Positions 3 to 38,646 of a stretch of 64,000 nt of DNA are shown piece by piece; position 1 is the first letter of the stretch, and the number at the start of each line of letters is the position of its first letter. A model generated the notes under the pieces. It made no database searches. It saw only the letters and a program-made list of their open reading frames with translations, and had not been told where the DNA came from. The stretch comes from Syntrophales bacterium (GTDB lineage Bacteria; Desulfobacterota; Syntrophia; Syntrophales; UBA2192). The stretch is from NCBI GenBank assembly GCA_035450185.1, contig DAOTMG010000003.1, positions 65,562-129,561 on the forward strand. The letters run 5' to 3'. The position numbers were made by a program, and so were the translations under genes.

Positions 3-821
3 GGCTCGAGCGGAACGGGTAACGGGACCGTTACCTATAGTATTACCGAGAACACGGAAGCAAAGCGTCGAACCGGAACGATAAGCATCGCCGGGCAGAC
101 CTATACGGTGACCCAGGCCGGGATACCCCCGACCGTTGTTTCCATGAGCCCGGAGACCGGCGCAACAGGAGCTTCTACCGGCACGGCTGTCAGGGCGACC
201 TTCAGCGAGACCATGAAGGCGTCGTCTTTCACGACGGCGACCTTCATGCTCACCCGCGGGGCGACACCGGTTGCGGGCGTCGTTTCCTACGACGCCCTGA
301 CGATGACGGCGACCTTTACGCCCTCCTCCGCGCTCGCCCTCGGCGCGACGTACACCGCGACGATCACCACGGCGGTGCAGGATGACGAGGGTGTGTCGCT
401 GCCTTCACCCGTCTCCTGGAACTTCACAACGACAGGCGGCGAGTCGGTGGCGACGAATCCATCAAACGGCGGCGGAGGCGGGTGCTTCATCGCGACGGCG
501 GCTTTCGGTTCACCCCTGGAGCCTCACGTGCAGATCCTCCGGGATTTCAGGGACAAGTATCTGCGCGGCCGCGCGGCGGGTTCCTCGATGGTACGGCTCT
601 ACGAGGATCTCTCGCCGCCTGTTGCCCGTTTCGTCTCCACGAACGAGGTGCTGAAGGCGGCCGTGAGGCTGTCGCTGCTGCCCCTGATCGGCTTTGCCTT
701 CGTCGTTCTTCAGATGGGTGCGGAGTTCACGATGGCGGCGGGGTTTTTCAGTGTCGCTTTAGTCGCGGTCGGCGTCTCGCGGCGGAGACGTTTACAGGGG
801 GGCGCTTCTGACAGATCCTGA
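3..821 (+). CDS. Surface/secreted repeat protein, 5' end outside window: BACON-like beta module, SbsA/Big_5-like Ig domain, C-terminal GCFIATAAFGS box plus TM anchor
   Basis: Frame is open from nt 3 (GSSGTGNGTVTYSITEN..TGTISIAGQTYTVTQ), so the GTG at 108 in the ORF track is internal. Ig-like pattern PTVVSMSPETGATG..ATFSETM. GGGGCFIATAAFGSPLEPHVQILRDFRDKYL is followed by a hydrophobic helix and RRRR. Stop at 819-821. Confidence 0.6.
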   Translation, partial: GSSGTGNGTVTYSITENTEAKRRTGTISIAGQTYTVTQAGIPPTVVSMSPETGATGASTGTAVRATFSETMKASSFTTATFMLTRGATPVAGVVSYDALTMTATFTPSSALALGATYTATITTAVQDDEGVSLPSPVSWNFTTTGGESVATNPSNGGGGGCFIATAAFGSPLEPHVQILRDFRDKYLRGRAAGSSMVRLYEDLSPPVARFVSTNEVLKAAVRLSLLPLIGFAFVVLQMGAEFTMAAGFFSVALVAVGVSRRRRLQGGASDRS

Positions 822-844: not shown

Positions 845-1201
845 CTATTTGCTCCGTCCGCCCTTTTCGATCTTTTTCAGGGTTCCGCCCTGAAAGGTGA
901 GAATGTAGACAAAACCGCCGTACCCCTCGTCGTAGTACCACTTTTCGACGCGTGTCGATTTCCCCTTGGTCGTCTTCTGCCCGGGCGCGGTTTTTTCTTT
1001 TTTTGTGTTTCCGGTCGCACCCGCCTTCTCCGTGCGGGCCGGCTTGCCGCAGGCCTTCTGGACGGTGTAGGTCGAATCGCCGACCGAGACGGCCTCGTCG
1101 CCGCAGCGATACGTCGTATCCCCGGCGGGGGCGGGGGCCGGCAGGGATATAGAAAGAAAGAACAGGGATGAGATAGCCGCTAAGGCGGTTTTCGGGTTCA
1201 T
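845..1201 (-). CDS. Small secreted protein, DUF2845-like
   Basis: Signal peptide MNPKTALAAISSLFFLSISLPAPAPAG. C-terminal WYYDEGYGGFVYILTFQGGTLKKIE resembles the DUF2845 pattern. GGGAGG lies 11 nt upstream of ATG 1201 (alternative ATG at 1210). Confidence 0.5.
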   Translation of the reverse strand: MNPKTALAAISSLFFLSISLPAPAPAGDTTYRCGDEAVSVGDSTYTVQKACGKPARTEKAGATGNTKKEKTAPGQKTTKGKSTRVEKWYYDEGYGGFVYILTFQGGTLKKIEKGGRSK

Positions 1202-1318
1202 GGGTATCATGGCCTCCCGGGATTGAAATGGAATGCACAACCCTTTTTATCGGTTTCCCGTGACGAATCTTGAATAGAGTTGTTTCAGGTGTTTTCACCG
1301 GGTGAGTGCATTTTTTGG

Positions 1319-1347
1319 TTGACAAAACCCGGGTGAACCTTTAGGAT
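1319..1347 (+). promoter_or_regulatory. Sigma70-like promoter candidate for the cimA leader
   Basis: TTGACA (1319-1324), 17-nt spacer, TAGGAT (1342-1347); about 40 nt upstream of the leader ORF. Confidence 0.4.
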
Positions 1348-1386
1348 ACGCCCCACTGAGGGGAAGGAAACAGAGCAGTTCAATCC

Positions 1387-1455
1387 ATGATCCGGAACAT
1401 TATTTCCATCATTCAGGCCATCATTATTATCGTCATACAGGATACGTCTGGATGA
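1387..1455 (+). CDS. Ile-rich leader peptide (22 aa) MIRNIISIIQAIIIIVIQDTSG
   Basis: ATG 1387 to TGA 1453-1455. 10 of 22 codons are Ile, including the run IIIIVI. Sits between the promoter-like site and a terminator hairpin directly upstream of cimA. SD is weak. Confidence 0.55.
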   Translation: MIRNIISIIQAIIIIVIQDTSG

Positions 1456-1505
1456 CGTAGGGGGCCGGTGATGGAATAATGCAGAGGACATAAATCTCTT
1501 GAAAG

Positions 1506-1537
1506 ATCCGTTATCCGGTTTCCGGTAACGGATTTTT
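1506..1537 (+). terminator. Intrinsic terminator / attenuator upstream of cimA
   Basis: atccgttatccgg / ccggtaacggat stem (12 bp, one bulged T), ttt loop, followed by TTTTT; ends 24 nt before the cimA start. Confidence 0.6.
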
Positions 1538-1560
1538 CAGTTTATGGGGGAATGTTCATC

Positions 1561-3156
1561 ATGAAGAAATGGGATGTGCTTCTCTACGACACCACCCTGA
1601 GGGATGGGACCCAGGGTGAACAGATCAACTTCTCCGCCGAGGAGAAACTGAGGATCGCCCAGCGGCTGGACGACATCGGTTTCCACTACATCGAGGGAGG
1701 GTGGCCGGGGTCGAACCCGAAGGACATGCGCTTCTTCGAAATTGCCCGGGAGAAGACCTTCCGGCAGGCGAAGCTCTCGGCCTTCGGGAGCACGAGGAAG
1801 GCGGGAATCAAGCCGCGGGAGTGCCCGAACCTGCTGGCTCTCCTCGGTGCCGGGACGCCGGTGGTGACCATCTTCGGGAAAACCTGGGATCTCCACGTCC
1901 ATGAAATCCTCAAGGTACCCCTCAAGGAGAATCTGGCCATGATCGGGGACACCGTTCGTTATCTCAAGGACCGGGGCAAGGAGCTCATCTACGACGCGGA
2001 GCATTTCTTCGACGGCTACAAGGCAAACCCCGCTTACGCGAGAGAAACCATCCGGTCGGCCCTTTCGGCAGGCGCGGACATGATCGTTCTTTGCGACACC
2101 AACGGCGGGTCCCTCCCCGAGGAGGTCCGCCGGATCACCCTGGAACTGTCCGATATCGTCCCCGGGGGGAAGCTCGGCATCCATACCCACAATGACGGCG
2201 GCCTGGCCGTGGCCAACACGCTGGCGGCCGTCGCGGCCGGTGCCAGGATGGTCCAGGGCACCATCAACGGTTTCGGGGAGCGTTGTGGAAACGCCGATCT
2301 GATCCCCATCATCGCCAATCTCCAGTTGAAAATGCAGAAGAGGTGCCTGACGGAAGCGTCGATGCGTCAGCTCACGAACCTCTCCCGGTTCGTGGGCGAC
2401 ATCGCCAATGTTCCGCCCCTGAACTCCCGGCCCTTCGTGGGCCGCAGCGCCTTCGCGCACAAAGGGGGCGTTCACGTGAATGCCGTCCGGAAAAACCCCG
2501 CTGCTTACGAGCATATCGACCCGGGACGCGTGGGGAATGTGAGAAGAGTTCTCGCCTCGGACCTGTCGGGGAAAAGCACCATCGAATACAAGGCCGGGGA
2601 ACTGGGTCTGTCGCTGGGCCGGGACAAATCGGCCAGCCGGAAGATCGTCCAGGTCATCAAGCAGATGGAGGACCAGGGGTACACCTTCGATGCCGCCGAC
2701 GGCTCGCTGTCCCTTCTCATCAAGAAAGCCACCGGCCAGTTCGAGGAGCCTTTTGAGCTCGAGCTTTTCCGCGTGATCAACGAAAAGGACGAAGAGAACC
2801 CCTCGCAGGCCCAGGCGATGATCAAGATCTGGGTGGGAGACGAGGTGGAGATCACGGCGGCCGAGGGCAACGGCCCCATCAATGCCCTCGACAACGCGCT
2901 CCGGAAGGCGCTGCGCACTTTCTATCCCGAAATCGACGAGATGCAGCTCATCGACTTCAAGGTCAACATCCTCGACGGCAGCGAGGGAACGGCCGCCAAG
3001 GTGAGGGTGCTCATCGAGTCCCGGGACCCGACGGAGATCTGGAGCACCGTCGGCGTGTCGGAGAGCGTCATCGAGGCAAGCTGGCTGGCCCTGGTGGACA
3101 GTTTCCAGTACAAGCTGAGCAAGGACTGCCTCAATTACAATCACCGGAAATCCTGA
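1561..3156 (+). CDS. cimA: (R)-citramalate synthase (2-isopropylmalate synthase family, long form with LeuA-dimer-type C-terminal domain)
   Basis: MKKWDVLLYDTTLRDGTQGEQINFS..HYIEGGWPGSNPKD..HTHNDGGLAVANTLAAV: HMGL-like TIM-barrel motifs of the CimA/LeuA family, ~530 aa. GGGGGA SD before ATG 1561 (the ORF-track ATG 1552 is too close to the SD). Followed by leuCDB. Confidence 0.85.
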   Translation: MKKWDVLLYDTTLRDGTQGEQINFSAEEKLRIAQRLDDIGFHYIEGGWPGSNPKDMRFFEIAREKTFRQAKLSAFGSTRKAGIKPRECPNLLALLGAGTPVVTIFGKTWDLHVHEILKVPLKENLAMIGDTVRYLKDRGKELIYDAEHFFDGYKANPAYARETIRSALSAGADMIVLCDTNGGSLPEEVRRITLELSDIVPGGKLGIHTHNDGGLAVANTLAAVAAGARMVQGTINGFGERCGNADLIPIIANLQLKMQKRCLTEASMRQLTNLSRFVGDIANVPPLNSRPFVGRSAFAHKGGVHVNAVRKNPAAYEHIDPGRVGNVRRVLASDLSGKSTIEYKAGELGLSLGRDKSASRKIVQVIKQMEDQGYTFDAADGSLSLLIKKATGQFEEPFELELFRVINEKDEENPSQAQAMIKIWVGDEVEITAAEGNGPINALDNALRKALRTFYPEIDEMQLIDFKVNILDGSEGTAAKVRVLIESRDPTEIWSTVGVSESVIEASWLALVDSFQYKLSKDCLNYNHRKS

Positions 3157-3171
3157 GCGGGAGAGCGAATC

Positions 3172-4431
3172 ATGGCCATGACCATCACCGAAAAAATACT
3201 TGCTGCCCACTCGGGGCGGAAATCGGTGTCGCCGGGCGACCTCGTCGAGGTCCGGGTCGATCTCGCCTTTGCCCATGATTTCACGGCGCCGCTGGCCATC
3301 CAGGTCTTCGAGGAAACCGGTGCCGAGAAGGTCTTCAACCGCAACAGGATCGCCCTCGTGGCGGATCACTTCGTTCCCAACAAGGATATCGCCTCGGCCC
3401 AGCAGGCCAAGCGAATGCGGGAGTTCGCGAGGAAACACCGGATCCGACACTATTATGAAGTCGGGGAGGCGGGTATCGGTCACGTTATTCTTCCCGAGAA
3501 GGGGCTTGTCGTGCCGGGAATGGTGGTCATCGGGGCGGACAGCCACACCTGCGCCTACGGCGCCCTCGGGGCCTTTTCGACCGGTGTCGGAAGCACCGAC
3601 CTCGGTGCCGTCATGGCCACGGGGGAGATCTGGCTGAAGGTCCCGCCGACGATCCGGCTGGAATACACGGGGAAAAGACGCCGCTGGGTCACCGGCAAGG
3701 ATCTCATCCTCTACACCATCGGACGGATCGGCGTTGAAGGCGCCCTCTACAGCACCATGGAATTCGCCGGACCCGTCGTCCGGGATCTCCCCATGTATCA
3801 GCGCTTTGCCATGACGAACATGGCCGTGGAGGCCGGGGCGAAGAACGGCATCATGGAGCCCGACGAGAAGACCCTGGCGTGGGTGAAGGGTCGTTCTGGC
3901 CTGAAGCCCCGGGTCTTCAGGGGCGACCCCGATGCGGCCTGCGCGAAGGTTATCCCGATTGACGTTAACGCCATCGAACCCCAGGTGGCCTTCCCGTCCT
4001 CGCCGGCCAATGACCGGCCGCTTTCGGCCGTGGGGAAGGTTCCCCTGGATCAGGTTTTCATCGGTTCCTGCACGAACGGCTGGCTCGAGGACCTGCGGGA
4101 CGCGGCGCGAATCCTCAAGGGGAAGAAGGCGGCCCGGGGGCTTCGGCTCATCGTGATTCCGGGCTCCCCCTGGATCCTGAAGGAGGCCGTGAAGGAAGGC
4201 ATCCTCGAAACCTTTCTGGAGGCCGGTGCCGTCATCGGGCCGCCCTGCTGCGGTCCCTGCCTGGGCGGTCACATGGGGGTTCTTGCCGAGGGGGAACGGG
4301 CACTGGCAACGACGAACCGCAATTTCGTCGGGCGCATGGGTCACCCGAAAAGCGAGGTCTATCTGAGCAACCCCTATGTGGCGGCGGCGTCGGCGGTGAT
4401 GGGGCGCATAGCAGGACCGGACGAATTATGA
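3172..4431 (+). CDS. leuC: 3-isopropylmalate/citramalate isomerase large subunit (aconitase family, 419-aa archaeal-type LeuC)
   Basis: MTITEKILAAHSG..DLAFAHDFT..GADSHTCAYGALGAF..GSCTNG..CGPCLG aconitase-family cluster-ligand motifs; operon context. Confidence 0.9.
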   Translation: MAMTITEKILAAHSGRKSVSPGDLVEVRVDLAFAHDFTAPLAIQVFEETGAEKVFNRNRIALVADHFVPNKDIASAQQAKRMREFARKHRIRHYYEVGEAGIGHVILPEKGLVVPGMVVIGADSHTCAYGALGAFSTGVGSTDLGAVMATGEIWLKVPPTIRLEYTGKRRRWVTGKDLILYTIGRIGVEGALYSTMEFAGPVVRDLPMYQRFAMTNMAVEAGAKNGIMEPDEKTLAWVKGRSGLKPRVFRGDPDAACAKVIPIDVNAIEPQVAFPSSPANDRPLSAVGKVPLDQVFIGSCTNGWLEDLRDAARILKGKKAARGLRLIVIPGSPWILKEAVKEGILETFLEAGAVIGPPCCGPCLGGHMGVLAEGERALATTNRNFVGRMGHPKSEVYLSNPYVAAASAVMGRIAGPDEL

Positions 4432-4433
4432 AC

Positions 4434-4555
4434 GGCTGTTGAAAAACACCCGTCTGCGGCGTTGTCCTCGTCCCTCGTCGCTCAACGTACGCTTCATAGT
4501 ACGCCTCGCTTCTCGGGAGGTCGGGCGCCTTGCATCCGGGCATTTTTGAACAGCC
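4434..4555 (+). repeat. MITE-like intergenic element, copy 1 (~122 bp, 14-bp terminal inverted repeats)
   Basis: GGCTGTTGAAAAAC...ATTTTTGAACAGCC. Roughly three-quarters identical by eye to 46195-46317. Begins 3 nt after the leuC stop and ends 28 nt before the leuD start. Confidence 0.7.
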
Positions 4556-4583
4556 GGAAACGTTTACCGGGAGATATCATCAG

Positions 4584-5102
4584 ATGAAAATTGAAGGACG
4601 GGTGTGGAAATTCGGGGATGATGTGGATACGGACCTCATCATCCCCGCTCGTTATTGCAATACCTCCGACGGCGCACAGCTCGCAAGACATGTGTTTGCC
4701 GATTCACGGCCGGACTTCGCCGGCGCCGTATCGGCGGGCGACGTCGTCGTGGCGGGAAGGAACTTCGGCTGCGGGTCGTCGCGTGAGCACGCGCCTCTGG
4801 CGCTGAAAGAGGCCGGCATCCGTGCCGTCATCGCCAGGAGCTTTGCCAGGATATTCTACCGCAACGCCTTCAACATCGGCCTCCCCCTGCTGGAATCCGG
4901 CGAGGCGGTCGACCGTATCCGGGACGGGGAGAAAATCTCTGTTGATCTTTCAACGGGGAAGATCGAAGATAGAACCAATCATCAGACCTTCCGAACGGAC
5001 CCGGTTCCCGATTTCATGAGGGAACTCATACGGACAGGGGGACTCGTCGATCACGTGAAGCGGAACAAGCTGAAGAAAAAAACGGTGAGGAGATCAAGAT
5101 GA
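4584..5102 (+). CDS. leuD: 3-isopropylmalate/citramalate isomerase small subunit
   Basis: MKIEGRVWKFGDDVDTDLIIPARY..GRNFGCGSSREHAP is the typical LeuD swivel domain. GGGAGA SD; the upstream part of the ORF-track ORF lies inside the repeat element. Confidence 0.9.
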   Translation: MKIEGRVWKFGDDVDTDLIIPARYCNTSDGAQLARHVFADSRPDFAGAVSAGDVVVAGRNFGCGSSREHAPLALKEAGIRAVIARSFARIFYRNAFNIGLPLLESGEAVDRIRDGEKISVDLSTGKIEDRTNHQTFRTDPVPDFMRELIRTGGLVDHVKRNKLKKKTVRRSR

Positions 5103-6172
5103 AAACTTACAATATCGGCGTCATTCCCGGCGACGGGACCGGCCCCGAGGTCATTGCGGAGGCCGTCAAGACCCTGAAGGCGATCACCGACGCGGGGGGA
5201 CCCGACTTCAACCTCGTCTACCAGGACCTGGGCGGCGACCGTTTCCTCAAGAAAGGGGAGCTTCTTCCCGACTCCGTCCTGCGGGAATTGAGGCAGATGG
5301 ACGCCATCCTGCTCGGCGCCCTCGGTCACCCCGATGTGAAGCCCGGCATCCTGGAGCGGGAAGTCCTGCTCAAACTCCGGTTCGACCTTGACCTCTACAT
5401 CAACCTGAGGCCCGTCGTGCTGTTTCCCGGCGTCTACACCCCCCTCAAGGACAAGGGCCCCGAGGAGATCGATTTTGTCGTCGTCCGGGAAAACACGGAG
5501 GGGCTCTACGTCGGAAGCGGCGGGTTTTTCCGGAAAGGCACCGCCGACGAAATCGCCATTCAGGAATCCGTCAACACGAGGCGCGGAGTCGAGCGCTGCA
5601 TCCGTTTCGCCTTCGACTACTGCCGCAGGAGAAACAGGAGAAAGAAGCTCACCCTCTGCGGAAAGACGAACGTCCTCACCTACGCCTTCGATCTCTGGGA
5701 GCGTGTCTTCCGGGAGGTGGGCAGGGACTATCCGGACGTGGAACTCGATTATGCCCACGTCGACGCGATCTGCATGTGGATGGTGAAAAACCCCGAGTAT
5801 TTCGATGTGATCGTGACGGACAACATGTTCGGCGACATCATCACCGACCTGGGCGCCATGATTCAGGGAGGGATGGGGATTGCCGCGGGCGGAAACATCA
5901 ACCCGGAGGCCGCATCCATGTTTGAACCGATCAGCGGATCGGCGCCGAAGTACACGGGACTGAACAAGATCAACCCGCTGGCGGCCATCTGCGCCGCCCA
6001 GATGATGCTGGAGCACCTCGGGGAGACCTCGGCGGCGGGGATGCTCCTCGAGGCCGTCAAGGCCGTGGTTCAAAACGACGTCAGGAGCATGGATGCCGGG
6101 AAGATGGGGTACGGCACCCGGGAGGTCGGTGACCTGGTCGTCAAGTACATCGTGGAGCCCATGACAACCTGA
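5099..6172 (+). CDS. leuB: 3-isopropylmalate dehydrogenase (isocitrate/isopropylmalate dehydrogenase family)
   Basis: [38 protein letters not shown] motifs; ATGA overlap with the leuD stop. Confidence 0.85.
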
Positions 6173-6265: not shown

Positions 6266-6427
6266 ATATGGGGATCTTCTCCATCCCGTGAAAAAAATTG
6301 ACGAAAGTCGCCGCATTGGGATATGAGGGATTTGTCCGTTTTTCAGACCATCTCCCGAAGCCCGCGGGGCGATACCGACGAGATCGGCGCCCCGGTCGGG
6401 TAAAATTCAGCGAAACGGCAGACCCTG

Positions 6428-7231
6428 ATGGCCATGAAAAATCCCATGATCGTCATGTCCGATTCCGCGGGCCGGGCGGGCCGCGCAACCATCGAATGGT
6501 TGAAACACTATCTCGATCTCAGCGCCTTCGCCTGGAGAATGATCCGCGAGCTGTTCCGCTGGCCGAGGGAGGGGAGGTCCCTGCTTTACCGGGTCACGCT
6601 GGAGCAGGTCTATTTCACGGCGGTCCAGGCCCTCCGGATCGTGATCCCCGTTGCACTCATTCTCGGGACCTCGTTCATCCTGCAGTTCAGCAAAGTATCG
6701 GGCCAGATCGATCTGGGCAAGATCGTCGTTGTCATTCTGGTGAGGGAAACGGGACCCCTTGTGACGGCGCTGATCGTCATTCTCAGGTCGGCAACGGCCG
6801 TCACGATCGAAACGGGTTACATGAATGTGCTCCGCGAGATGGAGACCCTGGAGATGGGGGGGATGGACCCTGTGAGGCTCTATGCCCTGCCGAGGCTGAT
6901 CGGCATGGTGACGGCGATGGTCTGCCTTGTTTTCATATTCACGACCAGCGCGATCCTCGGGGGCTACGCCATCGTCTGGCTGATCACAAACGTACCGATG
7001 CAGAATTTTCTTCTGGAAATCGCCAAGGCCCTCACACCCGCAGATTACATGGTTTCGGCGCTGAAGGCGGTCTTCTTCGGCGGGGTCATTGCGGTCGTGT
7101 CCCTGTACCGGGGTTTTTCCGTCGGGCGGGCCATCACGGAGGTCCCCGTCGCGACGTCGAAGGGCGCCGTGGAGTGTCTCATTTACTGCATGATCATCAG
7201 CGGACTGCTCTCCGCCCTGTTTTACATGTGA
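6428..7231 (+). CDS. mlaE: MlaE-family ABC transporter permease
   Basis: 267 aa, multi-TM. LVRETGPLVTALIVILRSATAVTIETGYMNVLREMETLEMGGMDP matches the conserved MlaE/Ttg2B core. Confidence 0.85.
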   Translation: MAMKNPMIVMSDSAGRAGRATIEWLKHYLDLSAFAWRMIRELFRWPREGRSLLYRVTLEQVYFTAVQALRIVIPVALILGTSFILQFSKVSGQIDLGKIVVVILVRETGPLVTALIVILRSATAVTIETGYMNVLREMETLEMGGMDPVRLYALPRLIGMVTAMVCLVFIFTTSAILGGYAIVWLITNVPMQNFLLEIAKALTPADYMVSALKAVFFGGVIAVVSLYRGFSVGRAITEVPVATSKGAVECLIYCMIISGLLSALFYM

Positions 7232-7233
7232 GA

Positions 7234-7989
7234 ATGAACTCGAAACTGATCGAACTCGTCAACTACACGCTCGCCCCTATTGGGCGGGGCAGGGGTCTGC
7301 GGAATTTCTCCTGCACCATCGCGGAGGGGGATATCGTCTATATCGAAGGGGATCGCTTCGATGACAGCCATCTGTTTCTCAGGGCCCTGGCGACCCTTGA
7401 AAGGCCTCAAGGGGGAACGTATTATTATCGCGGACAGGCTCTCGATTTCTCCGATTACCGCAAGCTTCTTCCATACAAGAGAAAAATAGGTTACATGTCG
7501 GCGGATGCCGCCCTCCTTTCGAACCGGACGATCGGAGAGAACATCCTGTGGCTGAGGTACTACCTGGAGGGCAAAAGATCCCTGAAGGCGGCCGATGACG
7601 TTCTTCATCTCTGCCGCATGTTCAACATCGAGGACAAGATGGACCTCCGGCCCTCACAGGTCTTCCGTGACGAGGTGAGGGCGGCCATCATCATCCGTGA
7701 GCTGATCAAGGGGGCGGAGATCCTTCTCGCGGAACCCGTAAGGGATGCCCTGTCCCGGGTTCACTACGACACGGCTGTCCAGCTGACGAAAGAGTCTTTA
7801 TCGCGAAAGACAACCGCTGTTTTTTCCTACAGTGACGAACCTTTCATCCGGGAGGCGGCGACGAAAAAGGTGAGGATCGTCGAGGGAGAACTGGAAGTCG
7901 TCAACCTGAGAAACGGGGCCGTGACGTTCGGCCAAAAGGAGGATCGAACCGTGGGGGAAGAAGATGGAGCTGAAATTCAGTCGAATTGA
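7234..7989 (+). CDS. Degenerate MlaF-like ABC ATPase homologue lacking Walker A, signature, Walker B and H-loop
   Basis: ATG 7234 is 3 nt after the mlaE stop. Collinear with ABC NBDs, but GDRFDDSH replaces GxxGxGK[ST], VFRDEV replaces LSGGQ, ILLAEP replaces hhhhDE and YSD replaces the H-loop. The first 312 codons of ORF 6298..7989 are a shadow over mlaE. Confidence 0.6.
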   Translation: MNSKLIELVNYTLAPIGRGRGLRNFSCTIAEGDIVYIEGDRFDDSHLFLRALATLERPQGGTYYYRGQALDFSDYRKLLPYKRKIGYMSADAALLSNRTIGENILWLRYYLEGKRSLKAADDVLHLCRMFNIEDKMDLRPSQVFRDEVRAAIIIRELIKGAEILLAEPVRDALSRVHYDTAVQLTKESLSRKTTAVFSYSDEPFIREAATKKVRIVEGELEVVNLRNGAVTFGQKEDRTVGEEDGAEIQSN

Positions 7990-8836
7990 GAAAGCCGTCG
8001 GGCTTTTCATGACGGTCGTTGTCCTGCTGGTCCTGGTTACCGTCGTGCTCATCGGGCGCGGCCAGGACTGGTTCAGGGAATACGTGACGTACTTCACGAC
8101 CTTCAAGGAAGGTTACAACCTGCAGGTCGGCGCGCCGGTGAAGCTCTTCAAGACGGATATCGGCAAGGTGAAAAGGATCACCCTTGTCGAGGACAAGGTC
8201 CGTGTGGAGCTGGCCATTCTTGCGGAATACGCCAGCCGGATCCGGAAGGATACCGTGGCCACTGTGGAAAGCCCCACGATCATCGGCTCGGAGTATGTGT
8301 CGATCCGACCGGGTTCGCCCAAGGAACCGGCCCTCCACCCGCGCGAGGAAATCAGGTCGGAATCCAAGAAAACCCTCGATGACATCCTGCAGGAATTCGA
8401 GGTCGAGAAGACGGCCAAGAAACTCATCGGTGCGCTCCAGGATCTCTCCCATATCATCGAAGAGCTTCAGGATCCCGCGGGGCCGCTCTTCTCGTCGCTT
8501 CGCGGCATCGATGAGGTGATGAAGGACGTGAAAGCCATCGTTGCCGGCATCGAAAACGGAGAGGGCACCATCGGTGGTCTCGTCAAATCCGACGAACTTC
8601 TCGAGAAGATCAATGACGCCATGGACAGGATCGATCAGATTCTCGCCAACGTGGAGAAGGGGAGCGAAGATGTCCCCGCAATCACGAAATCCACAAAACG
8701 CGGTATCCAGGAGACCCGGGACGCCCTGAGAGAGGTCGACCGGCTGGTGAGGGCAGCGCAGAAAAACGTGCTCATCCGCAGAGACATTCCGCCCGCGCCG
8801 GAGGGGAAAGACATGGACGCCGGGTTGAGGAGGTAA
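7964..8836 (+). CDS. mlaD: MlaD/MCE-domain periplasmic substrate-binding protein
   Basis: N-terminal TM (GLFMTVVVLLVLVTVVLIG), then an MCE fold pattern (GAPVKLFKTDIGKVKRITL..VRVELAI); C-terminal coiled coil. Confidence 0.8.
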   Translation: MELKFSRIEKAVGLFMTVVVLLVLVTVVLIGRGQDWFREYVTYFTTFKEGYNLQVGAPVKLFKTDIGKVKRITLVEDKVRVELAILAEYASRIRKDTVATVESPTIIGSEYVSIRPGSPKEPALHPREEIRSESKKTLDDILQEFEVEKTAKKLIGALQDLSHIIEELQDPAGPLFSSLRGIDEVMKDVKAIVAGIENGEGTIGGLVKSDELLEKINDAMDRIDQILANVEKGSEDVPAITKSTKRGIQETRDALREVDRLVRAAQKNVLIRRDIPPAPEGKDMDAGLRR

Positions 8837-8844
8837 GGCAGCCG

Positions 8845-9777
8845 ATGAAAATGAAATTACTTGCCGTGTTTCTTCTGACCCTTCCGGGGCTCGTGTCCTG
8901 TGGCGGTGGCGTCGTCAAGACGGCACCGCCGCATCTGGCCGCCGGCCGGGAGCAGATTGCGAGGGGGATGCCCTACTACCAGAAAGGTTGCTACAAGAGA
9001 GCCATCGAGTACTTCCTGAAGGCTCACGAACTGTGCACCTCTTATGATCAGCGCGAGTGTGTCGCTATGAGCCTCAACAACCTGGGGGCCGCCTACCGTG
9101 GAATCGAGGAGCCCGAAAGCGCTCTCATCCTCTTCCGGGAGTCCAATCGGGTTTATACCGGCGTCGGAAACGCCGCCGGGGCGAGACAGGCCCTCTGCAA
9201 CGAGGCCGCCGCGCTCATGGACACGGGCGATCTCGAAGGAGCCGAAAAAGCCCTGGACGAAGCCTCGAAGATGGGGGCCGGGATCGAGGGAAAACCTTTC
9301 ATACCCCTCATGAGCAACCGGGGGATCCTCCTCACGAAGAAGAAGGAATACGCGAAGGCGGAGGATGTCCTGAGGAACGCCCTGATTCAGGCGGATCCTG
9401 AAAATCCGGCGGACACGGCCGTCGTGAACGCGGCCCTCGGACATCTCATGCTGGACAGGGGCGACAACCGGCAGGCCGTCGGTTATTTCGAACGGGCCCT
9501 CGACGCGGACCGAAAGGCGGGTTTCCACAAGGGGATCGCCGACGATCTCCGTTATATCGGTGAGGCCTGTGAAAGGCTCGGCGAGGACCGCAGGGCCGTG
9601 CAAAACTGGCAGGAAGGCATCAAGATATACGCCCTGCTCGGCCTCGAGGATGAGGTGGACGACCTGCTGGAACGGCTCCGGACCGCGGCGGAAAGGACAT
9701 CCGTCAACATCGAGCTGACGGAATTTTTTGTCAACCACTGGCTGGAGGGGAGGGCGACGGAGGGCCTGTGCGACTGA
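8845..9777 (+). CDS. TPR-repeat lipoprotein
   Basis: Lipobox LPGLVSCGG; repeated TPR-like A..Y...G......A...F..AL units. Confidence 0.65.
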   Translation: MKMKLLAVFLLTLPGLVSCGGGVVKTAPPHLAAGREQIARGMPYYQKGCYKRAIEYFLKAHELCTSYDQRECVAMSLNNLGAAYRGIEEPESALILFRESNRVYTGVGNAAGARQALCNEAAALMDTGDLEGAEKALDEASKMGAGIEGKPFIPLMSNRGILLTKKKEYAKAEDVLRNALIQADPENPADTAVVNAALGHLMLDRGDNRQAVGYFERALDADRKAGFHKGIADDLRYIGEACERLGEDRRAVQNWQEGIKIYALLGLEDEVDDLLERLRTAAERTSVNIELTEFFVNHWLEGRATEGLCD

Positions 9778-14577: not shown

Positions 14578-16182
14578 TCACCCCTTTTGCCCTTCGGGCA
14601 GACAGGCAAGGAGGGTCTCGAGGGAATCGGCTTCCTCCGGTCGTTTTTCCCGGATGCGGAGGATGCGGGGGAAGCGGACGGCCACACCCGATTTGCGGAG
14701 TCGCGAGCGTTGAATCCCCTCGAAGGTGATCTCGAAGACAAGTTCCGGTCTCACCGACCGCACGGGCCCGAACCCCTCGAGGGTGTTCCGACGGATGAAA
14801 GAGTCGACCTGCCGGATTTCGGCGTCGGTCAGGCCGGAACAAGCCTTCGTTACCGGAACAAGCGCGCCTTCGTTCCAGACCCCGAAGGTGTAATCGGTGA
14901 AGAGACCCGCCGGCCGGCCGTGACCGGGTTCCGCGTACATCAGGACCGCGTCGAAGGTGAGGGGGTTGACTTTCCACTTCCACCAGTCCCCCCGGTGTCT
15001 GCCAGACCGGTAGGGGGAATCCCTCCTTTTGAGCATGAGGCCCTCTGCATGATGTTCCCCGCTTTTTCCCCGTGCCGCCGCCAGTTCTTCCCATGAGCGG
15101 GTATCGAGGACCGGGGAGAGAAGAAGAGCCCCTTCCCGGGACCAGCCTGCCGCCAGGGTCTCGAGCTTGCGCCGTCGTTCCGAGAGTTTTTCTCCGCGCA
15201 GGTCCTTTCCGTCGCCTTCGAGAAGATCGAAGGCCATGAAGGCGGCGGGGAATTCGGCGATGATCTTTTTCCCCGGTTTCTTCCGCCCGATCCTCCGCTG
15301 AAGACTGCTGAAGGGCAGAATAACCCCCTTTGTGCCGGCAAGGATCTCGCCGTCGAGCACGATTCCCTCGGGGATCCCATCGGCTGCCTCTTCTATTTCC
15401 GGAAACGCGCCGGACATCAATTCCCCGGCCCGGGACCAGATGAAGGTCTTCCCGCCGCGCCGCAAAAGCTGGGCGCGAAGGCCGTCCCACTTCCATTCGG
15501 CCTGCCAGACCTCGATGGGACCCAGCCGCTCGGGCTCTCCCTCCAGGAGATAGGAGAGGAAGAAGGGGAAGGGCCGGCCCGGGTCATCGGCATCGTGAAG
15601 CGGTGAGAGGAGTTTGCTGTAGAAATCGGCCGTCGGGATCCAGGGTCCGGCAAGCCGGCCGGCGAGGACGGCGGCGTCGATTCCGCTCAATTCCGCGAGG
15701 ATGCGGACGAGCGTCATCGACGAGACGCCGATGCGAAAGGTCCCCGTGATGAGCTTGTTGAAGACGAAACGCTCCGTCTCATCGAGCGTTCCCCAGACCT
15801 GCAGGACGGCCCGGCGCTTGTCCTCCGCGGCGGCGTTCCGGAGAGGGAGGAGTCTTTCTTCAACCAGCGCGTGCAGGGGTATATCCTTCGTGACGGCAGC
15901 GGGCGGCAGGATGAGGGTGATCGTCTCGGCAAGATCGCCTGCCGCCTCGCAGGATTCGTCGAAAAGCCACCCGGGGATCCCCGCCGCCTCGCCGGCCCAG
16001 GCGCGAAGCTTCCGGGCCGGGATCAGGCCCTTGATCTTCCCGCCGTTCAGGAAGTGCAGGGCCCACGCGGCATCGGCCGGTTCGGCCTTCTCGAAATACC
16101 GTCTGAGGGCCGCGGCCCTTCCACTTGTCTTCGTCGTTCCGTCAAGCTCTTCGTATAACTGAGAGAAGTTTTTCATCGGCAA
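14578..16182 (-). CDS. ATP-dependent DNA ligase (ligase-associated DNA damage response type)
   Basis: 534 aa; adenylation-domain lysine motif AEWKWDGLR; OB-fold C-terminus; downstream of an MBL-fold exonuclease gene. Confidence 0.85.
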   Translation of the reverse strand: MPMKNFSQLYEELDGTTKTSGRAAALRRYFEKAEPADAAWALHFLNGGKIKGLIPARKLRAWAGEAAGIPGWLFDESCEAAGDLAETITLILPPAAVTKDIPLHALVEERLLPLRNAAAEDKRRAVLQVWGTLDETERFVFNKLITGTFRIGVSSMTLVRILAELSGIDAAVLAGRLAGPWIPTADFYSKLLSPLHDADDPGRPFPFFLSYLLEGEPERLGPIEVWQAEWKWDGLRAQLLRRGGKTFIWSRAGELMSGAFPEIEEAADGIPEGIVLDGEILAGTKGVILPFSSLQRRIGRKKPGKKIIAEFPAAFMAFDLLEGDGKDLRGEKLSERRRKLETLAAGWSREGALLLSPVLDTRSWEELAAARGKSGEHHAEGLMLKRRDSPYRSGRHRGDWWKWKVNPLTFDAVLMYAEPGHGRPAGLFTDYTFGVWNEGALVPVTKACSGLTDAEIRQVDSFIRRNTLEGFGPVRSVRPELVFEITFEGIQRSRLRKSGVAVRFPRILRIREKRPEEADSLETLLACLPEGQKG

Positions 16183-30712: not shown

Positions 30713-31757
30713 ATCGGACCTTCCCCTTTTTGATCCTTTTGCTCATTCCGAGCCTTTCATCGGCTTTTCTGAGAAGCGAGGACGCGTCGCTCACGTTCCG
30801 GTCCCTGTTCGTCGCCACACCGCAGCTGAGCGAAAGCGTCACGTGGGTCTCTCCGCGTCGCATGGGGTTGGTGAGGAAAAAGGTCTGGATGCGGTCGGAG
30901 AAGCGAAAGGCGTTTTCGCCTTCCGTGTGGGGGAGGATGACGACGAACTCGTCCCCGGCGAACCTCGCCACGATGTCGCTCTCGCGGCTCATGACCCGGA
31001 GGTGCACGGCCACGTATTTGAGGGCCTCGTCGCCGAAGTCGCGGCCATGGAGGTCGTTGAGTTCCTTGAAGTGATCCAGGTCCAGGAAGACCACCGAGAG
31101 CGGCGTGCCGTAGCGGGCGGCCCGGCTGAACTCCCGCCTCAGGGCCTCCTCGAGGACCCGGCGGTTGAGAAGCCCCGTGAGGGTGTCCTGGAAGGCGAGC
31201 ATGCGAAGTTTCTCCTGTGCCATGACGTTGGAGAGGCAGATGGACACCTTCACGGCGAGTTGCTCCAGGAGGGTCGTCTCCATCCCCGGGGCGTAGCGCT
31301 GGTCCGACGAGTCAGCCAGGTTGAGGCTCCCGATGACCTCCCGGTCGAGGGTGAGAGGGACGATGGCGAGGGAACGGATTTTCTTTCGTCCCTGCTCGGG
31401 AAGAATCGGCTCATAGTCCTTGAGCTGATCGTTGATGAGGACGGGTGAGCGCCGGCTGTCCGTCAGGCGGAAGAGGGTCTCCTTCGCGATGGTTCGCAGG
31501 TTCCTCCGGACGGTCTGGGGGGCTTCGATGGTCTCGAGGAGCTTGAGCGGTTCGCTTCCCTCGATCAGGGCGATCCAGACGTGGGGGATGTCGAATTTTT
31601 CCCGTATTTCCCTGAGAAGCCTTTGCAGGAAATCCTTGAAGTGACGGATGGAGAGGATGCTGGTTTCGATCTCGAAAAACTTCCGGGCGATCTCCTCGTT
31701 GTCGCGAATGACCTGGAGAAGCTCGCTCACGTCTTGCAGGGGCTGTCTTCCGGTCAT
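30711..31757 (-). CDS. Diguanylate cyclase (N-terminal DUF484/GAF-like sensor + GGDEF)
   Basis: LTGLLNRR.., FLDLDHFKELND, RFAGDEFVV (GGDEF variant AGDEF) in the C-terminal half. Confidence 0.8.
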   Translation of the reverse strand: MTGRQPLQDVSELLQVIRDNEEIARKFFEIETSILSIRHFKDFLQRLLREIREKFDIPHVWIALIEGSEPLKLLETIEAPQTVRRNLRTIAKETLFRLTDSRRSPVLINDQLKDYEPILPEQGRKKIRSLAIVPLTLDREVIGSLNLADSSDQRYAPGMETTLLEQLAVKVSICLSNVMAQEKLRMLAFQDTLTGLLNRRVLEEALRREFSRAARYGTPLSVVFLDLDHFKELNDLHGRDFGDEALKYVAVHLRVMSRESDIVARFAGDEFVVILPHTEGENAFRFSDRIQTFFLTNPMRRGETHVTLSLSCGVATNRDRNVSDASSLLRKADERLGMSKRIKKGKVR

Positions 31758-32707
31758 GGGGTCTTCTTCAGTGCCTCGATGAGTTTCGGTACGACGTCGT
31801 ACAGATTGCCGACGATGCCGAGGTCCGCGGCACCGAAGATGGGGGCGTGCTCGTCCTTGTTGACGGCGGCGATCACCTTGGAACGGCTGATCCCCGTGAC
31901 ATGCTGGATCTGGCCGGAGACGCCGAGACCGATGTAGAGGTCCGGCTTGACGGAGATGCCGGAGAGGCCGATGCAGAGTTCCTCCGGAAGCCAGTGCAAC
32001 TCCTCCGTGACCGGCCGTGTGCCGGCGACCTCTCCTCCGAGAACTTCCGCCAGTTCCCGTACGAGGGAAAGATCCTCCTTCTTTTCAACACCCCTTCCCG
32101 CGCAGACGACGACAGGAGATTCCGTGATATCCTTTATCTCGCGGGTCCTGGCCCTTTTCTCGAGGATCTTCACGGCTGAATGCGCCGGGGCGGCAAGTTC
32201 CCGGACCTTTCCCTCCCTTCCCGCAAACTCCGGCGCCGGTTCGAAGGTCCGGGGCGGGATGGTAGCCATGACGGGGCGGGTGGAGCAGGAGACCCTCTGC
32301 AGGGCTGCGCCGCCGTATGCGAGACGGTCCATCAGAACGGATTTTGACTCTTCGTCAAAGGTGATCGCCGTGCAGCTGCTGCAGAGGCCCGTCTTGAGCC
32401 GAACCGCGAGTCGGGCGGCAAGTTCCTTCCCCCGGTAGGTCGCCGGGATCAGGATCAGATCGGGCTCCGTCCTGCCGGCCTCTTCGGCGATGAGCGGAAT
32501 GAAGGCATCCGGTGACTGTCCTTCCGGAAGCGCCGGCAGGAGAATCGCTTCGTCCGCGCCGTGAGCGATGAAGACCTTTGCCCCTTCAGGCGTGTCGCCG
32601 ATCATGACCGAAAGGGACACTCCCATCTTGTCCGCGAGTTGCCTGCCGATGCCCAAAAGCTCGAGGGCCTGGTCTCTCCATTCCGCAAGAATCCAGATTC
32701 CTGCCAT
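31754..32707 (-). CDS. etfA: Electron transfer flavoprotein alpha subunit
   Basis: 317 aa; C-terminal FAD-binding pattern PELYIGLGVSGQIQH..G......IAAVNKD..API; overlaps the GGDEF start by 4 nt. Confidence 0.9.
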   Translation of the reverse strand: MAGIWILAEWRDQALELLGIGRQLADKMGVSLSVMIGDTPEGAKVFIAHGADEAILLPALPEGQSPDAFIPLIAEEAGRTEPDLILIPATYRGKELAARLAVRLKTGLCSSCTAITFDEESKSVLMDRLAYGGAALQRVSCSTRPVMATIPPRTFEPAPEFAGREGKVRELAAPAHSAVKILEKRARTREIKDITESPVVVCAGRGVEKKEDLSLVRELAEVLGGEVAGTRPVTEELHWLPEELCIGLSGISVKPDLYIGLGVSGQIQHVTGISRSKVIAAVNKDEHAPIFGAADLGIVGNLYDVVPKLIEALKKTP

Positions 32708-32717
32708 GGTATTTCCT

Positions 32718-33488
32718 CTATCGTATGACGCCCTTTCTCACCAGGGCGTCGATGAATTTTTTGATCTCCCCGGGATCCGTCCCGAATTTCTCGCAGCTTC
32801 TCTCCATCCGCGCCGCCTTCATGTCCACTGTCTTGAGCCGGGCTTCCGGCATGGAGGGGAGATCCCTCTTCGTGATGGTCGTCACGGGCTTCTTGCCCGC
32901 CATCAGCGTGTCCTTCACGCCGGGGATCCGCGGCGTGTTGATGTCGGGGAGCACCGTCACCAGGGCCGGCGTCGGGGCCGATACGACTTCCGTGCCTTCC
33001 TCGACCTTTCGCTCCGCGACGATCTTTCCATCCCCCAGGGTGATCTTCTGAACGAAGGCAACGCAGGGGATGCCGAGGAGTTCCGCGAGACGCGGTCCGA
33101 CCTGCTGGGCATAGAGGTCGCTCGAACCTTCGCCGCAGGTGATGAGATCGTATTGGGGGATGCGGGACTGTATGACCTCCGCGAGAATGGCGGCCGTCCG
33201 GGCGGGTTCGAGGTCGCGGAAGTCCGGGTCCGCTATGAAGAAGGCCCGGTCCATCCCGCGGGACAGACCGTCCTTGACCCCTTTCGCGGCCTCCGTCGTC
33301 CCGACGGTGATGCCGATCACGCTCCCGCCGCCCCCTGCATCTCGCAGGCGGGCGGCCTCCTCGATGGCATTGCGGTCATATTCCCCGATCTTGTAGTCCA
33401 CGGCCGATAAGTCGAGCTTCCCGTCGGACCCCCGGCGGATGTAGGCTTCGTCGATGACCCACTTGAAACAGGCAATAAGGGTGGGCAT
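32718..33488 (-). CDS. etfB: Electron transfer flavoprotein beta subunit
   Basis: MPTLIACFKWVIDEAY.., DLITCGEGSSD.. GGAGG SD before ATG 33488; the ORF-track start at 33527 lies in the repeat region. Confidence 0.85.
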   Translation of the reverse strand: MPTLIACFKWVIDEAYIRRGSDGKLDLSAVDYKIGEYDRNAIEEAARLRDAGGGGSVIGITVGTTEAAKGVKDGLSRGMDRAFFIADPDFRDLEPARTAAILAEVIQSRIPQYDLITCGEGSSDLYAQQVGPRLAELLGIPCVAFVQKITLGDGKIVAERKVEEGTEVVSAPTPALVTVLPDINTPRIPGVKDTLMAGKKPVTTITKRDLPSMPEARLKTVDMKAARMERSCEKFGTDPGEIKKFIDALVRKGVIR

Positions 33489-33502
33489 ATATGCCTCCGG
33501 TC

Positions 33503-33579
33503 TCAAGGCTAAAGGCTCAAGGTGCAAGGCGAAGATGGCATTGCCATAAGCCCTTAGCCTTACGCCTTATGCCTTATGT
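33503..33579. repeat. Heptamer (AAGGCNN / NNGCCTT) arrays in inverted orientation around a perfect ATGGCA-T-TGCCAT palindrome
   Basis: tcaaggct aaaggct caaggtg caaggcg aag ATGGCATTGCCAT aagccct tagcctt acgcctt atgcctt atg; acd-etfB intercistronic. Confidence 0.75.
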
Positions 33580-33586
33580 CTTTCTT

Positions 33587-34726
33587 TTATCTCAGCACCG
33601 TACCCGAGATAACCATCCGCTGGGCTTCCGAGGACCCCTCGTAGATCTCCAGGATCTTGGCGTCGCGCATGATGCGCTCCACCTTCGCGCCCTTGATGTA
33701 GCCGTACCCGCCGTGAATCTGGACGGCCTTGATCGTGTGGTGCATGGCTTTTTCCGACGCGTAGAGCTTGGCCATGGAGGCTTCCTTGCTGAAGGGCTTT
33801 CCCTGGTCCTTCAGCCATGCGGCATGGTAGGTGAGCCAGCGCGCCGCCTGGAGGTCCGTCGCCATGTCGGCGATCATCCAGGCGATGGCCTGGTGACGGG
33901 CGATGGGAGTACCCATCTGGACCCTTTCCTTGGAGTACCTGATGGACTCATCGAGGGCCGCCTGGAGGATGCCCACGCCCTGCGCGGCGATCCCCACGCG
34001 CCCGTGGTCGAAGCCGAGCATGGCGTTGCCGAGGCCCGCCCCTTCCGGCCCCAGGAGATTTGCCTTGGGGACGCGGCAGTCCTTGAATACGACCTCCGAG
34101 GTCTGCGAGGAGCGGAGCCCCATTTTGTGAAAGTGCTCGCCGGGTTTCAGGCCGGCGGTCCCTTTCGGGATGATGAAGGAACTCATCCCCTTGCGCCCCG
34201 CCGCCTTGTCGGTCCAGCAGAAGACGAGGTAGGTGTCGGCCAGCGGCCCGTTGGAGATAAAGGTCTTCGTGCCGTTGATCACGTAGAAGTCGCCGTCCTT
34301 GGCGGCCGTCGTCGTCGCGGCCATGACGTCGGTGCCGGCCCCCGGTTCGGTGAGGACGAAGGCCCCCATGTGCTGTCCCGTGGCGAGAGGGACGAGGTAC
34401 TTCTTCTTCTGATCCTCGTTTCCGAGGAGGTTGATGAGCATGCAGGCGATTCCGACGTGGATCGAAACGGTGAACCCCGTCGAGGAGCAGGAGCGTGACA
34501 GCTCCTCCACGACGATGGCGTTGGTCAGGTAGTCCGACCCGGAGCCGCCCCATTGCGTCGGGATGGGGATGCCCATCCAACCTCCCTCTGCGAGCTTTTT
34601 GAAGAGGTCCGCCGGGTGGATTTCTTTCTCGTCGATCTCGGCGGCGATGGGATCGACATGTTTCACACAGAATTCACGGATGTTCTTTCGGATCAGTTCC
34701 TGTTCCTCCGTCAGTTTGAAGTCCAT
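33587..34726 (-). CDS. Acyl-CoA dehydrogenase (short/medium-chain, butyryl-CoA dehydrogenase-like)
   Basis: 379 aa; LTEPGAGTD, ..KTFISNG.., YEGSSEAQR family motifs; adjacent to etfBA. Confidence 0.9.
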   Translation of the reverse strand: MDFKLTEEQELIRKNIREFCVKHVDPIAAEIDEKEIHPADLFKKLAEGGWMGIPIPTQWGGSGSDYLTNAIVVEELSRSCSSTGFTVSIHVGIACMLINLLGNEDQKKKYLVPLATGQHMGAFVLTEPGAGTDVMAATTTAAKDGDFYVINGTKTFISNGPLADTYLVFCWTDKAAGRKGMSSFIIPKGTAGLKPGEHFHKMGLRSSQTSEVVFKDCRVPKANLLGPEGAGLGNAMLGFDHGRVGIAAQGVGILQAALDESIRYSKERVQMGTPIARHQAIAWMIADMATDLQAARWLTYHAAWLKDQGKPFSKEASMAKLYASEKAMHHTIKAVQIHGGYGYIKGAKVERIMRDAKILEIYEGSSEAQRMVISGTVLR

Positions 34727-38460: not shown

Positions 38461-38646
38461 CGCCGATACGGCCATGATGAAGGGAGAATCCCGACATCCC
38501 ACAGCCTGCTTTGGTGTGAGCATGGACCTGATCTTCGAGGACCCGCAATTCCGGCATGACCGTTTCCCGGCCTTCCGGTGAAACGGACAGGGTGTCTCAT
38601 GGCGCCACGAAACAGGGGGTAAGAGCGGGAGTCAAAGGAGAGATCG

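Follow-up and report, generated by a model that had tools for sequence, protein, structure and literature searches.

A candidate isoleucine-codon leader-peptide attenuator upstream of cimA-leuCDB in an uncultured Syntrophales bacterium

How is a pathway to isoleucine that does not start from threonine adjusted to the isoleucine supply in anaerobes of digesters and sediments that are not easily grown? The products of cimA-leuCDB make 2-oxobutyrate for isoleucine from pyruvate and acetyl-CoA. The question is raised by the intergenic region that precedes these genes in a 64-kb stretch of DNA from a Syntrophales bacterium (the whole stretch is called the window, and all coordinates refer to it). 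An earlier reading of the letters alone, hereafter the sequence-only reading, had proposed that the charging of Ile-tRNA controls cimA from this region. The analysis reported here supports that proposal by a conserved mini-ORF and terminator, by competing RNA helices and by a match between leader codons and operon genes. Very probably the region holds a ribosome-mediated (leader-peptide) attenuator that couples cimA-leuCDB expression to tRNA-Ile charging. The parts of this element, its three exclusive helices, their conservation and the codon-operon match were computed in this analysis.

The leader and its mutually exclusive helices

The leader is preceded by a sigma-70-type promoter sequence (Table 1), already recognized as a TTGACA-17-TAGGAT pair, which a promoter scan recovered at the same place with its 17-nt spacer and 10/12 consensus matches. 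Promoter-like sites number 4 in the 1.2-kb region, against 0.4 expected. The position of the promoter puts the predicted transcription start at about 1354. Downstream lies a 22-codon ORF whose translation agrees with the one given before: isoleucine takes 10 of the 22 codons, in a mixture of ATT (five), ATC (four) and ATA (one). The sequence-only reading had overstated their clustering as six Ile within seven consecutive codons; the density peaks at 5/6 codons (codons 12-17) or at 6/8 (codons 8-15). The two strands of the window together hold 1040 ORFs with 10 codons or more, among which the leader ORF is the only one with six or more Ile per 8 codons (the runner-up has 4) and holds 10 Ile per 16 codons where the runner-up has 5. 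Read in six frames, 13 of 127,900 windows of 16 codons carry six or more Ile codons. The leader uses non-ATC Ile codons (ATT and ATA) in 6 of 10 cases, whereas cimA-leuCDB (1561-6172) use ATC for 81 of 96. This bias of the leader may reflect the constraints of pairing between its regions 1 and 2, described next, or a preference for slowly decoded sensor codons.

Four regions of the leader RNA engage in three long helices. Region 1, within the ORF, pairs with region 2 (helix 1:2, the anti-antiterminator; 1398-1419 with 1463-1481, 19 bp, two small bulges, -24.4 kcal/mol). Region 2 pairs alternatively with region 3 (helix 2:3, the antiterminator; 1462-1475 with 1507-1521, 14 bp, U1514 bulged, -17.8 kcal/mol). 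Region 3 pairs with region 4 in the terminator (helix 3:4; 1503-1518 with 1522-1536, 15 bp, U1514 bulged, followed by UUUUU, duplex energy -26.1 kcal/mol). Because positions 1463-1475 are common to helices 1:2 and 2:3, and positions 1507-1518 to helices 2:3 and 3:4, the three helices are mutually exclusive in the order of an attenuator. The sequence-only reading had seen the last of them as a hairpin and U-run at 1506-1537, 24 nt before cimA; the terminator was found there, paired over 1503-1536 and ending about 23-24 nt from the cimA ATG (1561). Only 23 nt between U-run and ATG leave no room for a promoter, so every cimA transcript must cross the terminator. The mid hairpin with its single mismatch, likewise noticed beforehand, was also obtained by folding; it contains the leader stop codon and joins helix 1:2 in the 'protector' fold. 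The search for mutually exclusive folds added the antiterminator, which the eye had missed, together with the competing helix 1:2. The leader as a whole (1350-1563) folds with z = -5.6 relative to dinucleotide shuffles, and in a single-sequence test of helix 1:2 nine of 1000 such shuffles do as well.

Since the equilibrium fold of the full-length leader is uninformative about switching, transcripts that stop before region 4 (ending at 1519 and 1522) were folded instead, with the ribosome represented by a 29-nt footprint. A ribosome placed at any of the Ile codons 5-16 leads to the antiterminator, with 11 region-3 bases paired with 1465-1475. With the ribosome on codon 17 or on the stop codon, or with no ribosome, helix 1:2 forms and region 3 stays free. 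The stop codon lies 8-9 nt 5' of region 2, and a ribosome on it (1453) reaches to about 1466, covering the G+C-rich foot of region 2.

The sequence therefore contains a cognate-codon ORF, an intrinsic terminator, an antiterminator, an anti-antiterminator and a suitably placed stop codon, from which we infer leader translation, stalling, folding order, termination and read-through as follows. Transcription would begin at about 1354, and the 22-codon leader would be translated while RNA polymerase advances. With plentiful Ile-tRNA the ribosome would reach the stop codon at 1453 and its footprint would cover the 5' part of region 2; once it had departed, region 1 would pair with region 2. With region 2 occupied in either way, region 3 would pair with region 4 and the terminator (1503-1537) would halt transcription before cimA. 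With scarce Ile-tRNA the ribosome would stall on the Ile codons (1399-1437), covering or separating region 1. Region 2 (1462-1475) would then be free to capture the nascent 5' arm of the terminator (1507-1521), and the resulting antiterminator would exclude the terminator and permit read-through into cimA-leuCDB.

Table 1. Coordinates of the leader elements, the operon and its upstream neighbour in the window
Feature	Position	Strand	Details and basis
Promoter, sigma-70-type, predicted for the leader-cimA-leuCDB transcript	1319-1347	+	-35 TTGACA 1319-1324, -10 TAGGAT 1342-1347
Leader peptide ORF, 22 codons	1387-1455	+	MIRNIISIIQAIIIIVIQDTSG; translation; TGA stop 1453-1455
Region 1, anti-antiterminator strand	1398-1419	+	codons 4-11 (N I I S I I Q A), inside the ORF; pairs with 1463-1481
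Second Ile run	1420-1437	+	codons 12-17 (I I I I V I), between region 1 and mid hairpin
Mid hairpin	1431-1457	+	1431-1440 (CGTCATACAG) with 1448-1457 (CTGGATGACG), one A.G mismatch
Region 2, switch strand	1462-1481	+	1463-1481 with region 1, or 1462-1475 with region 3
Small hairpin AGAGG/UCUCU in the antiterminator loop	1483-1499	+	folds of truncated transcripts
Region 3, terminator 5' arm (1503-1518) and loop	1503-1521	+	1507-1521 pair with region 2 as antiterminator
Region 4, terminator 3' arm (1522-1536) and U-run (1533-1537)	1522-1537	+	folding, duplex energy
cimA Shine-Dalgarno sequence, GGGGGAA	1545-1551	+	read from the sequence; outside all leader helices
cimA, (R)-citramalate synthase, first regulated gene	1561-3156	+	TIGR00977, 701.6 bits, cut-off 450
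leuC, isopropylmalate/citramalate isomerase large subunit	3172-4431	+	TIGR02083, 630 bits, cut-off 610.65
leuD, isomerase small subunit	4530-5102	+	start uncertain, 4530 or 4584
leuB, 3-isopropylmalate dehydrogenase, last gene of the operon	5099-6172	+	NF002898, 522.8 bits, cut-off 393
DUF2845 gene	845-1240	-	divergent upstream neighbour

Related leaders in front of other cimA genes

The CimA protein was used as query against GTDB genome representatives and JGI metagenomes, which yielded at least 160 loci. Among the matches listed, the closest CimA proteins (73%, 71%, 71% and 69% identity) are all from metagenome contigs, and the best one from a genome representative (66%) belongs to a Syntrophales metagenome-assembled genome. 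A homologous element is found directly 5' of cimA in at least 17 further loci, making 18 with the window. They belong to Syntrophales, Desulfatiglandales and Desulfobacterales-type genomes and to metagenomes (L001, L002, L003, L005, L006, L007, L008, L081, L082, L085, L086, L087, L088, L089, L093, L096, L097), and their CimA proteins are 61-73% identical to that of the window. Alignment of these upstream regions, which the sequence-only reading had put forward as a check, revealed that the Ile-rich mini-ORF and the terminator are conserved in the 17 other loci. In nearly all of them the equivalent relative position holds a TTGACA box, followed after about 17 nt by a -10-like hexamer; an Ile-rich ORF comes next, and then a terminator with arms that are near-identical in sequence (family CCGUUAUCAGG ... 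CCUGAUAACGG, window CCGUUAUCCGG ... CCGGUAACGG). The 18 members reach 56-87 bits under a covariance model that runs from region 2 to the end of the terminator; on the + strand of 694 kb this model has no other match above 33 bits, and no second copy in the window.

The leader ORFs have a common design. In 18/18 loci the ATH triplets are in one frame that is open from the start codon to a stop at region 2. The stop codon lies within region 2 or at most 8 nt from it in 16/16 loci analysed, as in the trpL design; in the 15 of these other than the window it is within region 2 or directly adjoins it. Peptide length is less constant: the long leaders of relatives have 37-41 amino acids (aa) and those of the window's clade 21-25 residues, with all RNA helices kept.

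The codon content of the leaders follows the genes that they precede. Leaders with Ile codons only, those of the window, L081 (MGLNAITIIIGIIIRGGHSPA) and L082 (MKSSIGIIIPIIIDIIGIRPGGVGG), belong to operons in which the gene after cimA is leuC (3/3). An Ile run followed by a Leu run (L001-L003, L005-L007, L085-L087, L093 and L097; for example L005, MRNVINNSIVIISATGILVSLLLLLVLELKPPGLIMT) goes with a leuA gene between cimA and leuC (11/11), the weakest case being L001 with three Leu codons only. Leaders with Ile and Val runs, L008 (MQPQAITSTVGIIAVVVGIIISLLPAGGLVMA) and L096 (MIRSRAITSTTEIILGVVVIVGIIISLLPAGGLVMA), precede cimA genes that are followed by ilvD (2/2). The comparison covers 16 loci, L088 and L089 ending before the next gene. 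Such tracking of operon content is what sensing of tRNA charging by decoding would predict, and it would be hard to explain otherwise. The Leu or Val codons of the long leaders follow region 1 and precede region 2, some of them in the mid hairpin. A ribosome stalled on these codons would melt this hairpin and separate regions 1 and 2, with the same outcome as a stall in region 1.

The helices are conserved to different degrees across the family. In the terminator 96.9% of the alignment cells are paired, with 4 compensatory pairs and a covariation above that of all 500 shuffles. Helix 1:2 has 81% of cells paired and 5 compensatory pairs (0/500 shuffles reach its score), and the equivalent of the mid hairpin in the long-leader relatives has 90.8% of cells paired and compensatory changes in 8 of its 12 pairs (0/500 shuffles). 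For helix 2:3 the support comes mainly from a conserved sequence in register: 85% of cells are paired over 16-18 loci, against 15-54% when the strands are slid by 1-3 columns, and 3 pairs are compensatory. Duplex energies computed for each locus range from -14.5 to -23.8 kcal/mol for helix 2:3 and from -10 to -31 kcal/mol for helix 1:2. A structure competing with the terminator, on which the sequence-only reading had made its proposal depend, is thus present as helix 2:3, accompanied by helix 1:2, both in register across the family. Truncated and masked transcripts of L081 switch cleanly, like those of the window, while those of L006 and L008 do so partially.

Two features indicate that selection acts on the RNA and not on the peptide. 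The region-2 core CCUGAUAAUG is conserved in 18/18 loci regardless of reading frame; since it encodes GLIMT followed by the stop in the long leaders, includes, read in a different frame, the stop codon of L081 and L082, and is untranslated in the window, it is kept across three coding states. In addition, three strands of the window have changed together relative to the family, region 3 from UCAGG to UCCGG and regions 2 and 4 from CCUG to CCGG. The conservation forms a relay chain, in which the AUU/AUC codons of region 1 fix region 2, which fixes region 3, which fixes region 4. The unusual sequence conservation of the terminator follows from it, because its arms are locked to the AUU/AUC codons via two successive pairings. 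Note that L085 (1433-1470) has a double compensatory change in its terminator (CCGCUAUCAGG / CCUGAUAGCGG versus the family CCGUUAUCAGG / CCUGAUAACGG) while its region 2 keeps AAUG, which leaves one mismatch in the antiterminator.

The attenuator is confined to one subset of cimA contexts, because many other genomes have cimA directly 3' of ilvC (C-terminus ...MWRAGAAVRSLRPENRK) or of an aspartokinase ACT domain without a leader of its own (L004, L009, L010, L013, L015, L017-L020, L022, L023, L049, L058, L060, L063, L071, L120-L152 and others). The remaining cimA loci have either no leader-sized gap after ilvC or aspartokinase, or unrelated upstream regions. Other elements were met around some cimA genes. 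In L012 (1218-1600 and 3318-3363) a repeated unit of about 100 nt fills the stretch upstream of cimA, and the gene is flanked by two copies of the Acido-Lenti-1 RNA motif (RF01687, 44 and 41 bits). L021 carries a tandem array of GCTGTTAGC / GCTGTTGGC-type units just 5' of cimA (2850-2960). Additional sequence separates the terminator from cimA in L007, as a G+C-rich palindrome (CACCCCCACCC...GGGTGGGGGTG; 345-425), and in L008, as about 150 nt (1225-1360) with another TTGACA box, which may be a second promoter that bypasses the attenuator. The model also gave weak matches of 22-33 bits just 3' of cimA in two Paenibacillus genomes (L051 4579-4703 and L047 4582-4718); these are palindromic on both strands and most likely represent ordinary terminators rather than members of the family.

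Attenuation weighed against other explanations

Several observations weigh against the attenuator and have to be set beside the evidence for it. The Shine-Dalgarno sequence of the window leader is poor, as the sequence-only reading had rightly remarked: the only purine-rich tract, GGAAGGAAA, is about 17 nt 5' of the ATG. Several relatives have a better-spaced one 5-9 nt before the start (L001 GAGAGGA, L089 AAGGA, L081 GGAAG). The antiterminator helix 2:3 is modest on the single sequence, being equalled in 38/1000 dinucleotide shuffles. Because this single-sequence support is modest the case rests on conservation, and the covariation of helix 2:3 is not significant there (57/500 and 78/500 shuffles reach its score). 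Folded to equilibrium, the full-length leader forms the terminator in every case, even under a ribosome mask, as is expected for an element that terminates by default. Truncated transcripts of most relatives form helix 2:3 at equilibrium without a ribosome, so that the switch decision has to be kinetic and set by folding order, as it is in the classical attenuators. The codon-operon match amounts to about two independent evolutionary transitions rather than 16 trials, because the three leader types are three clades. Finally, the model presupposes that transcription is coupled to translation in these uncultured anaerobes.

A coincidence of an ORF and a terminator-like hairpin in an AT-rich divergent intergenic region might be invoked, given that the ORF has 39% G+C against 60% for the window and that AT-richness favours ATH triplets. 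It leaves unexplained the outlying position of the ORF among 1040 ORFs and 127,900 windows, the fold z of -5.6 and the homologous element at 17 other loci with 61-73% CimA identity; conservation already refutes a chance origin, whose probability is negligible. The mini-ORF might alternatively be a gene in its own right, encoding a small hydrophobic peptide of a membrane or toxin-like kind, cimA being expressed by constitutive leak-through or from another promoter. The long leaders of relatives (37-41 aa, like MRNVINNSIVIISATGILVSLLLLLVLELKPPGLIMT) do resemble a single transmembrane helix and have some residues in common. As a peptide, however, only the Ile, Leu and Val runs are conserved: the GLIMT segment is kept as nucleotides in three coding states, the 'ATGIL' segment forms one arm of a hairpin that shows compensatory changes, and the window's clade retained every RNA helix while its peptide shortened from about 40 residues to 21-25. 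Peptide composition follows the gene content of the operon, and the 23-nt gap between U-run and ATG forces cimA transcripts through the terminator, which speaks against expression from elsewhere. The independent-gene explanation is consequently considered very unlikely.

The switch could also be set by something other than a ribosome, such as uncharged tRNA (in the manner of a T-box), an isoleucine riboswitch or an RNA-binding protein, the Ile codons then being incidental to AU-rich pairing strands. The alternative helices are there with or without translation of the ORF, and the weak Shine-Dalgarno sequence of the window would fit. Yet the leader matches no T-box or other Rfam family, even at E <=10, and nothing like a conserved unpaired pocket or a specifier-type loop can be seen. 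In all 18 loci the ATH triplets keep to a single open frame ending at region 2, and Leu and Val runs appear exactly where leuA or ilvD is in the operon, which is hard to explain without decoding. Control by a factor of this kind is therefore regarded as very improbable. A translated leader might still act mainly through Rho and polarity, or through arrest by the nascent peptide, rather than through the relay of helices 1:2, 2:3 and 3:4. Poly-Ile and hydrophobic chains and the rare ATA codon could slow ribosomes regardless of charging, and codon substitutions in actinobacterial ilvB leaders gave ambiguous results (PMC1262725). Against such action stand the conserved canonical intrinsic terminator with its U-run, the relay helices conserved in register with compensatory changes, and peptide sequences that vary freely outside the codon runs, so that there is very little likelihood in its favour.

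Known leaders, the operon and its surroundings

The leader has no counterpart among the Rfam families. In the segment 1100-1700 of the window a search at E <=10 returned noise only, with no T-box (RF00230) and none of the amino-acid leader families (Leu, His, Thr, Trp, Phe and the Lactococcus leu and phe leaders). Nothing reached the gathering score in the whole window, and no leader or T-box family did so in the loci of 20 relatives. The ilvL leader of ilvGMEDA in Escherichia coli and Salmonella is similar in having a short ORF rich in branched-chain codons, mutually exclusive protector, antiterminator and terminator structures, termination by default and target genes in the isoleucine pathway. 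It is multivalent (Ile/Val/Leu), as are the Ile+Leu and Ile+Val relatives of the cimA leader, whereas the window leader would sense Ile only. The two have no detectable relationship by sequence or covariance model. They also differ in their targets (ilvA and ilvGM for ilvL, the threonine-independent citramalate route for the cimA leader) and in their hosts (Gammaproteobacteria versus Desulfobacterota-type anaerobes). Unlike in ilvL, the regulatory codons of the cimA leader are not restricted to region 1, many being found between regions 1 and 2, in the conserved mid hairpin. The ilv (Ile/Val) attenuators were characterised earlier and had no Rfam family in 2013, and amino-acid attenuators have been suggested to have arisen in Gammaproteobacteria with few transfers (PMC3766115).

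The proteobacterial trp, his, leu and thr leaders (RF00513, RF00514, RF00512 and RF00506) have the same four-region relay and a stop codon placed so that region 2 is occluded, but each serves another amino acid and operon, and none of their models matches the window at E <=10. A further similarity is that strands which take part in several pairings are conserved over long evolutionary distances, a property noted for attenuators before (PMC1262725). Outside Gammaproteobacteria, the actinobacterial ilvB leaders and the Leu-rich ilv-leu leader of Staphylococcus aureus likewise have Ile/Val/Leu runs followed by terminators (PMC1262725, PMC11857589, PMC10272879, PMC5794164). They occur in other phyla and in front of other genes (ilvBNC, ilvD-leu). 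For part of the actinobacterial leaders it is unclear what the antiterminator is or whether the response depends on the codons, whereas in the cimA leader all three helices can be recognized and are conserved. The ILE T-box responds to the same signal, tRNA-Ile charging, and has the same terminator/antiterminator output in a 5' leader, but it binds uncharged tRNA directly and does not need translation. Work that maps leader-peptide attenuation has dealt mainly with Proteobacteria, Actinobacteria and some Firmicutes, and with the threonine-dependent ilv genes.

In the searchable literature, which does not include the 2004 survey of proteobacterial attenuators, no paper was found that connects cimA or citramalate synthase with leader peptides or attenuation. 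Vitreschak 2004 (FEMS Microbiol Lett) is not known to cover this bacterial group. The one paper in which 'citramalate' and 'leader peptide' both occur deals with valine production by a methanogen, and the regulon reconstruction for delta-proteobacteria (Rodionov 2004) makes no mention of leader peptides (PMC545781). It is somewhat more probable than otherwise that the 18 loci are the founding example of an undescribed attenuator family and the first leader-peptide control for the citramalate route, with a sensor reprogrammed in step with the operon (Ile alone with cimA-leuCDB, Leu added with leuA, Val with ilvD). The family may also be the first of its kind for this phylum. The mechanism itself would be unsurprising, leader-peptide attenuation being textbook biology; the target pathway (the citramalate bypass), the taxon and the modular series of leaders are new as far as checked. 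If the proposal is correct, the family would be a natural series in which the specificity of an attenuator evolves through edits to its leader ORF and the RNA relay persists. The element would moreover serve as an independent label, readable from the sequence, that separates CimA from LeuA paralogues in uncultured anaerobes: a cimA leader would be independent evidence that an enzyme of the LeuA family serves isoleucine synthesis, and would help to annotate paralogues that are hard to separate.

The cimA-leuCDB operon named in the sequence-only reading was identified by profile matches to cimA, leuC, leuD and leuB (Table 1). Public gene calls place the start of cimA at ATG 1552, and a look-up of the product that begins at 1561 returned nothing. 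The organism is uncultured, and assemblies from anaerobic digesters and sewage contain at least 22 of its contigs. The leaders of the six such contigs compared are 100% identical to that of the window, and therefore offer no population-level variation to exploit. The DUF2845 gene on the opposite strand implies that the terminator belongs to the leader transcript and not to this neighbour. Together with a gene at 108-821 (+), whose product has a CFI-box-CTERM sorting-type domain (NF041770, 88 bits), it delimits the divergent intergenic region that holds the leader; both genes are unrelated to the attenuator. No more branched-chain amino acid genes were recognized among 20 long ORFs sampled from 8.8-45 kb of the window. 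The region 3' of leuB (6298-9777) starts with a 563-aa ORF that has a C-terminal ABC ATPase-like part; with the MlaD/MCE-family protein (7964-8836) and the TPR protein (8845-9777) it resembles a Mla-type lipid transport cluster. Further along the window are an ATP-dependent DNA ligase, an ETF-alpha and acyl-CoA dehydrogenase pair and two radical-SAM proteins, at 14578-16182 (-), 31754-34726 (-) and 37177-40314 (+), respectively.

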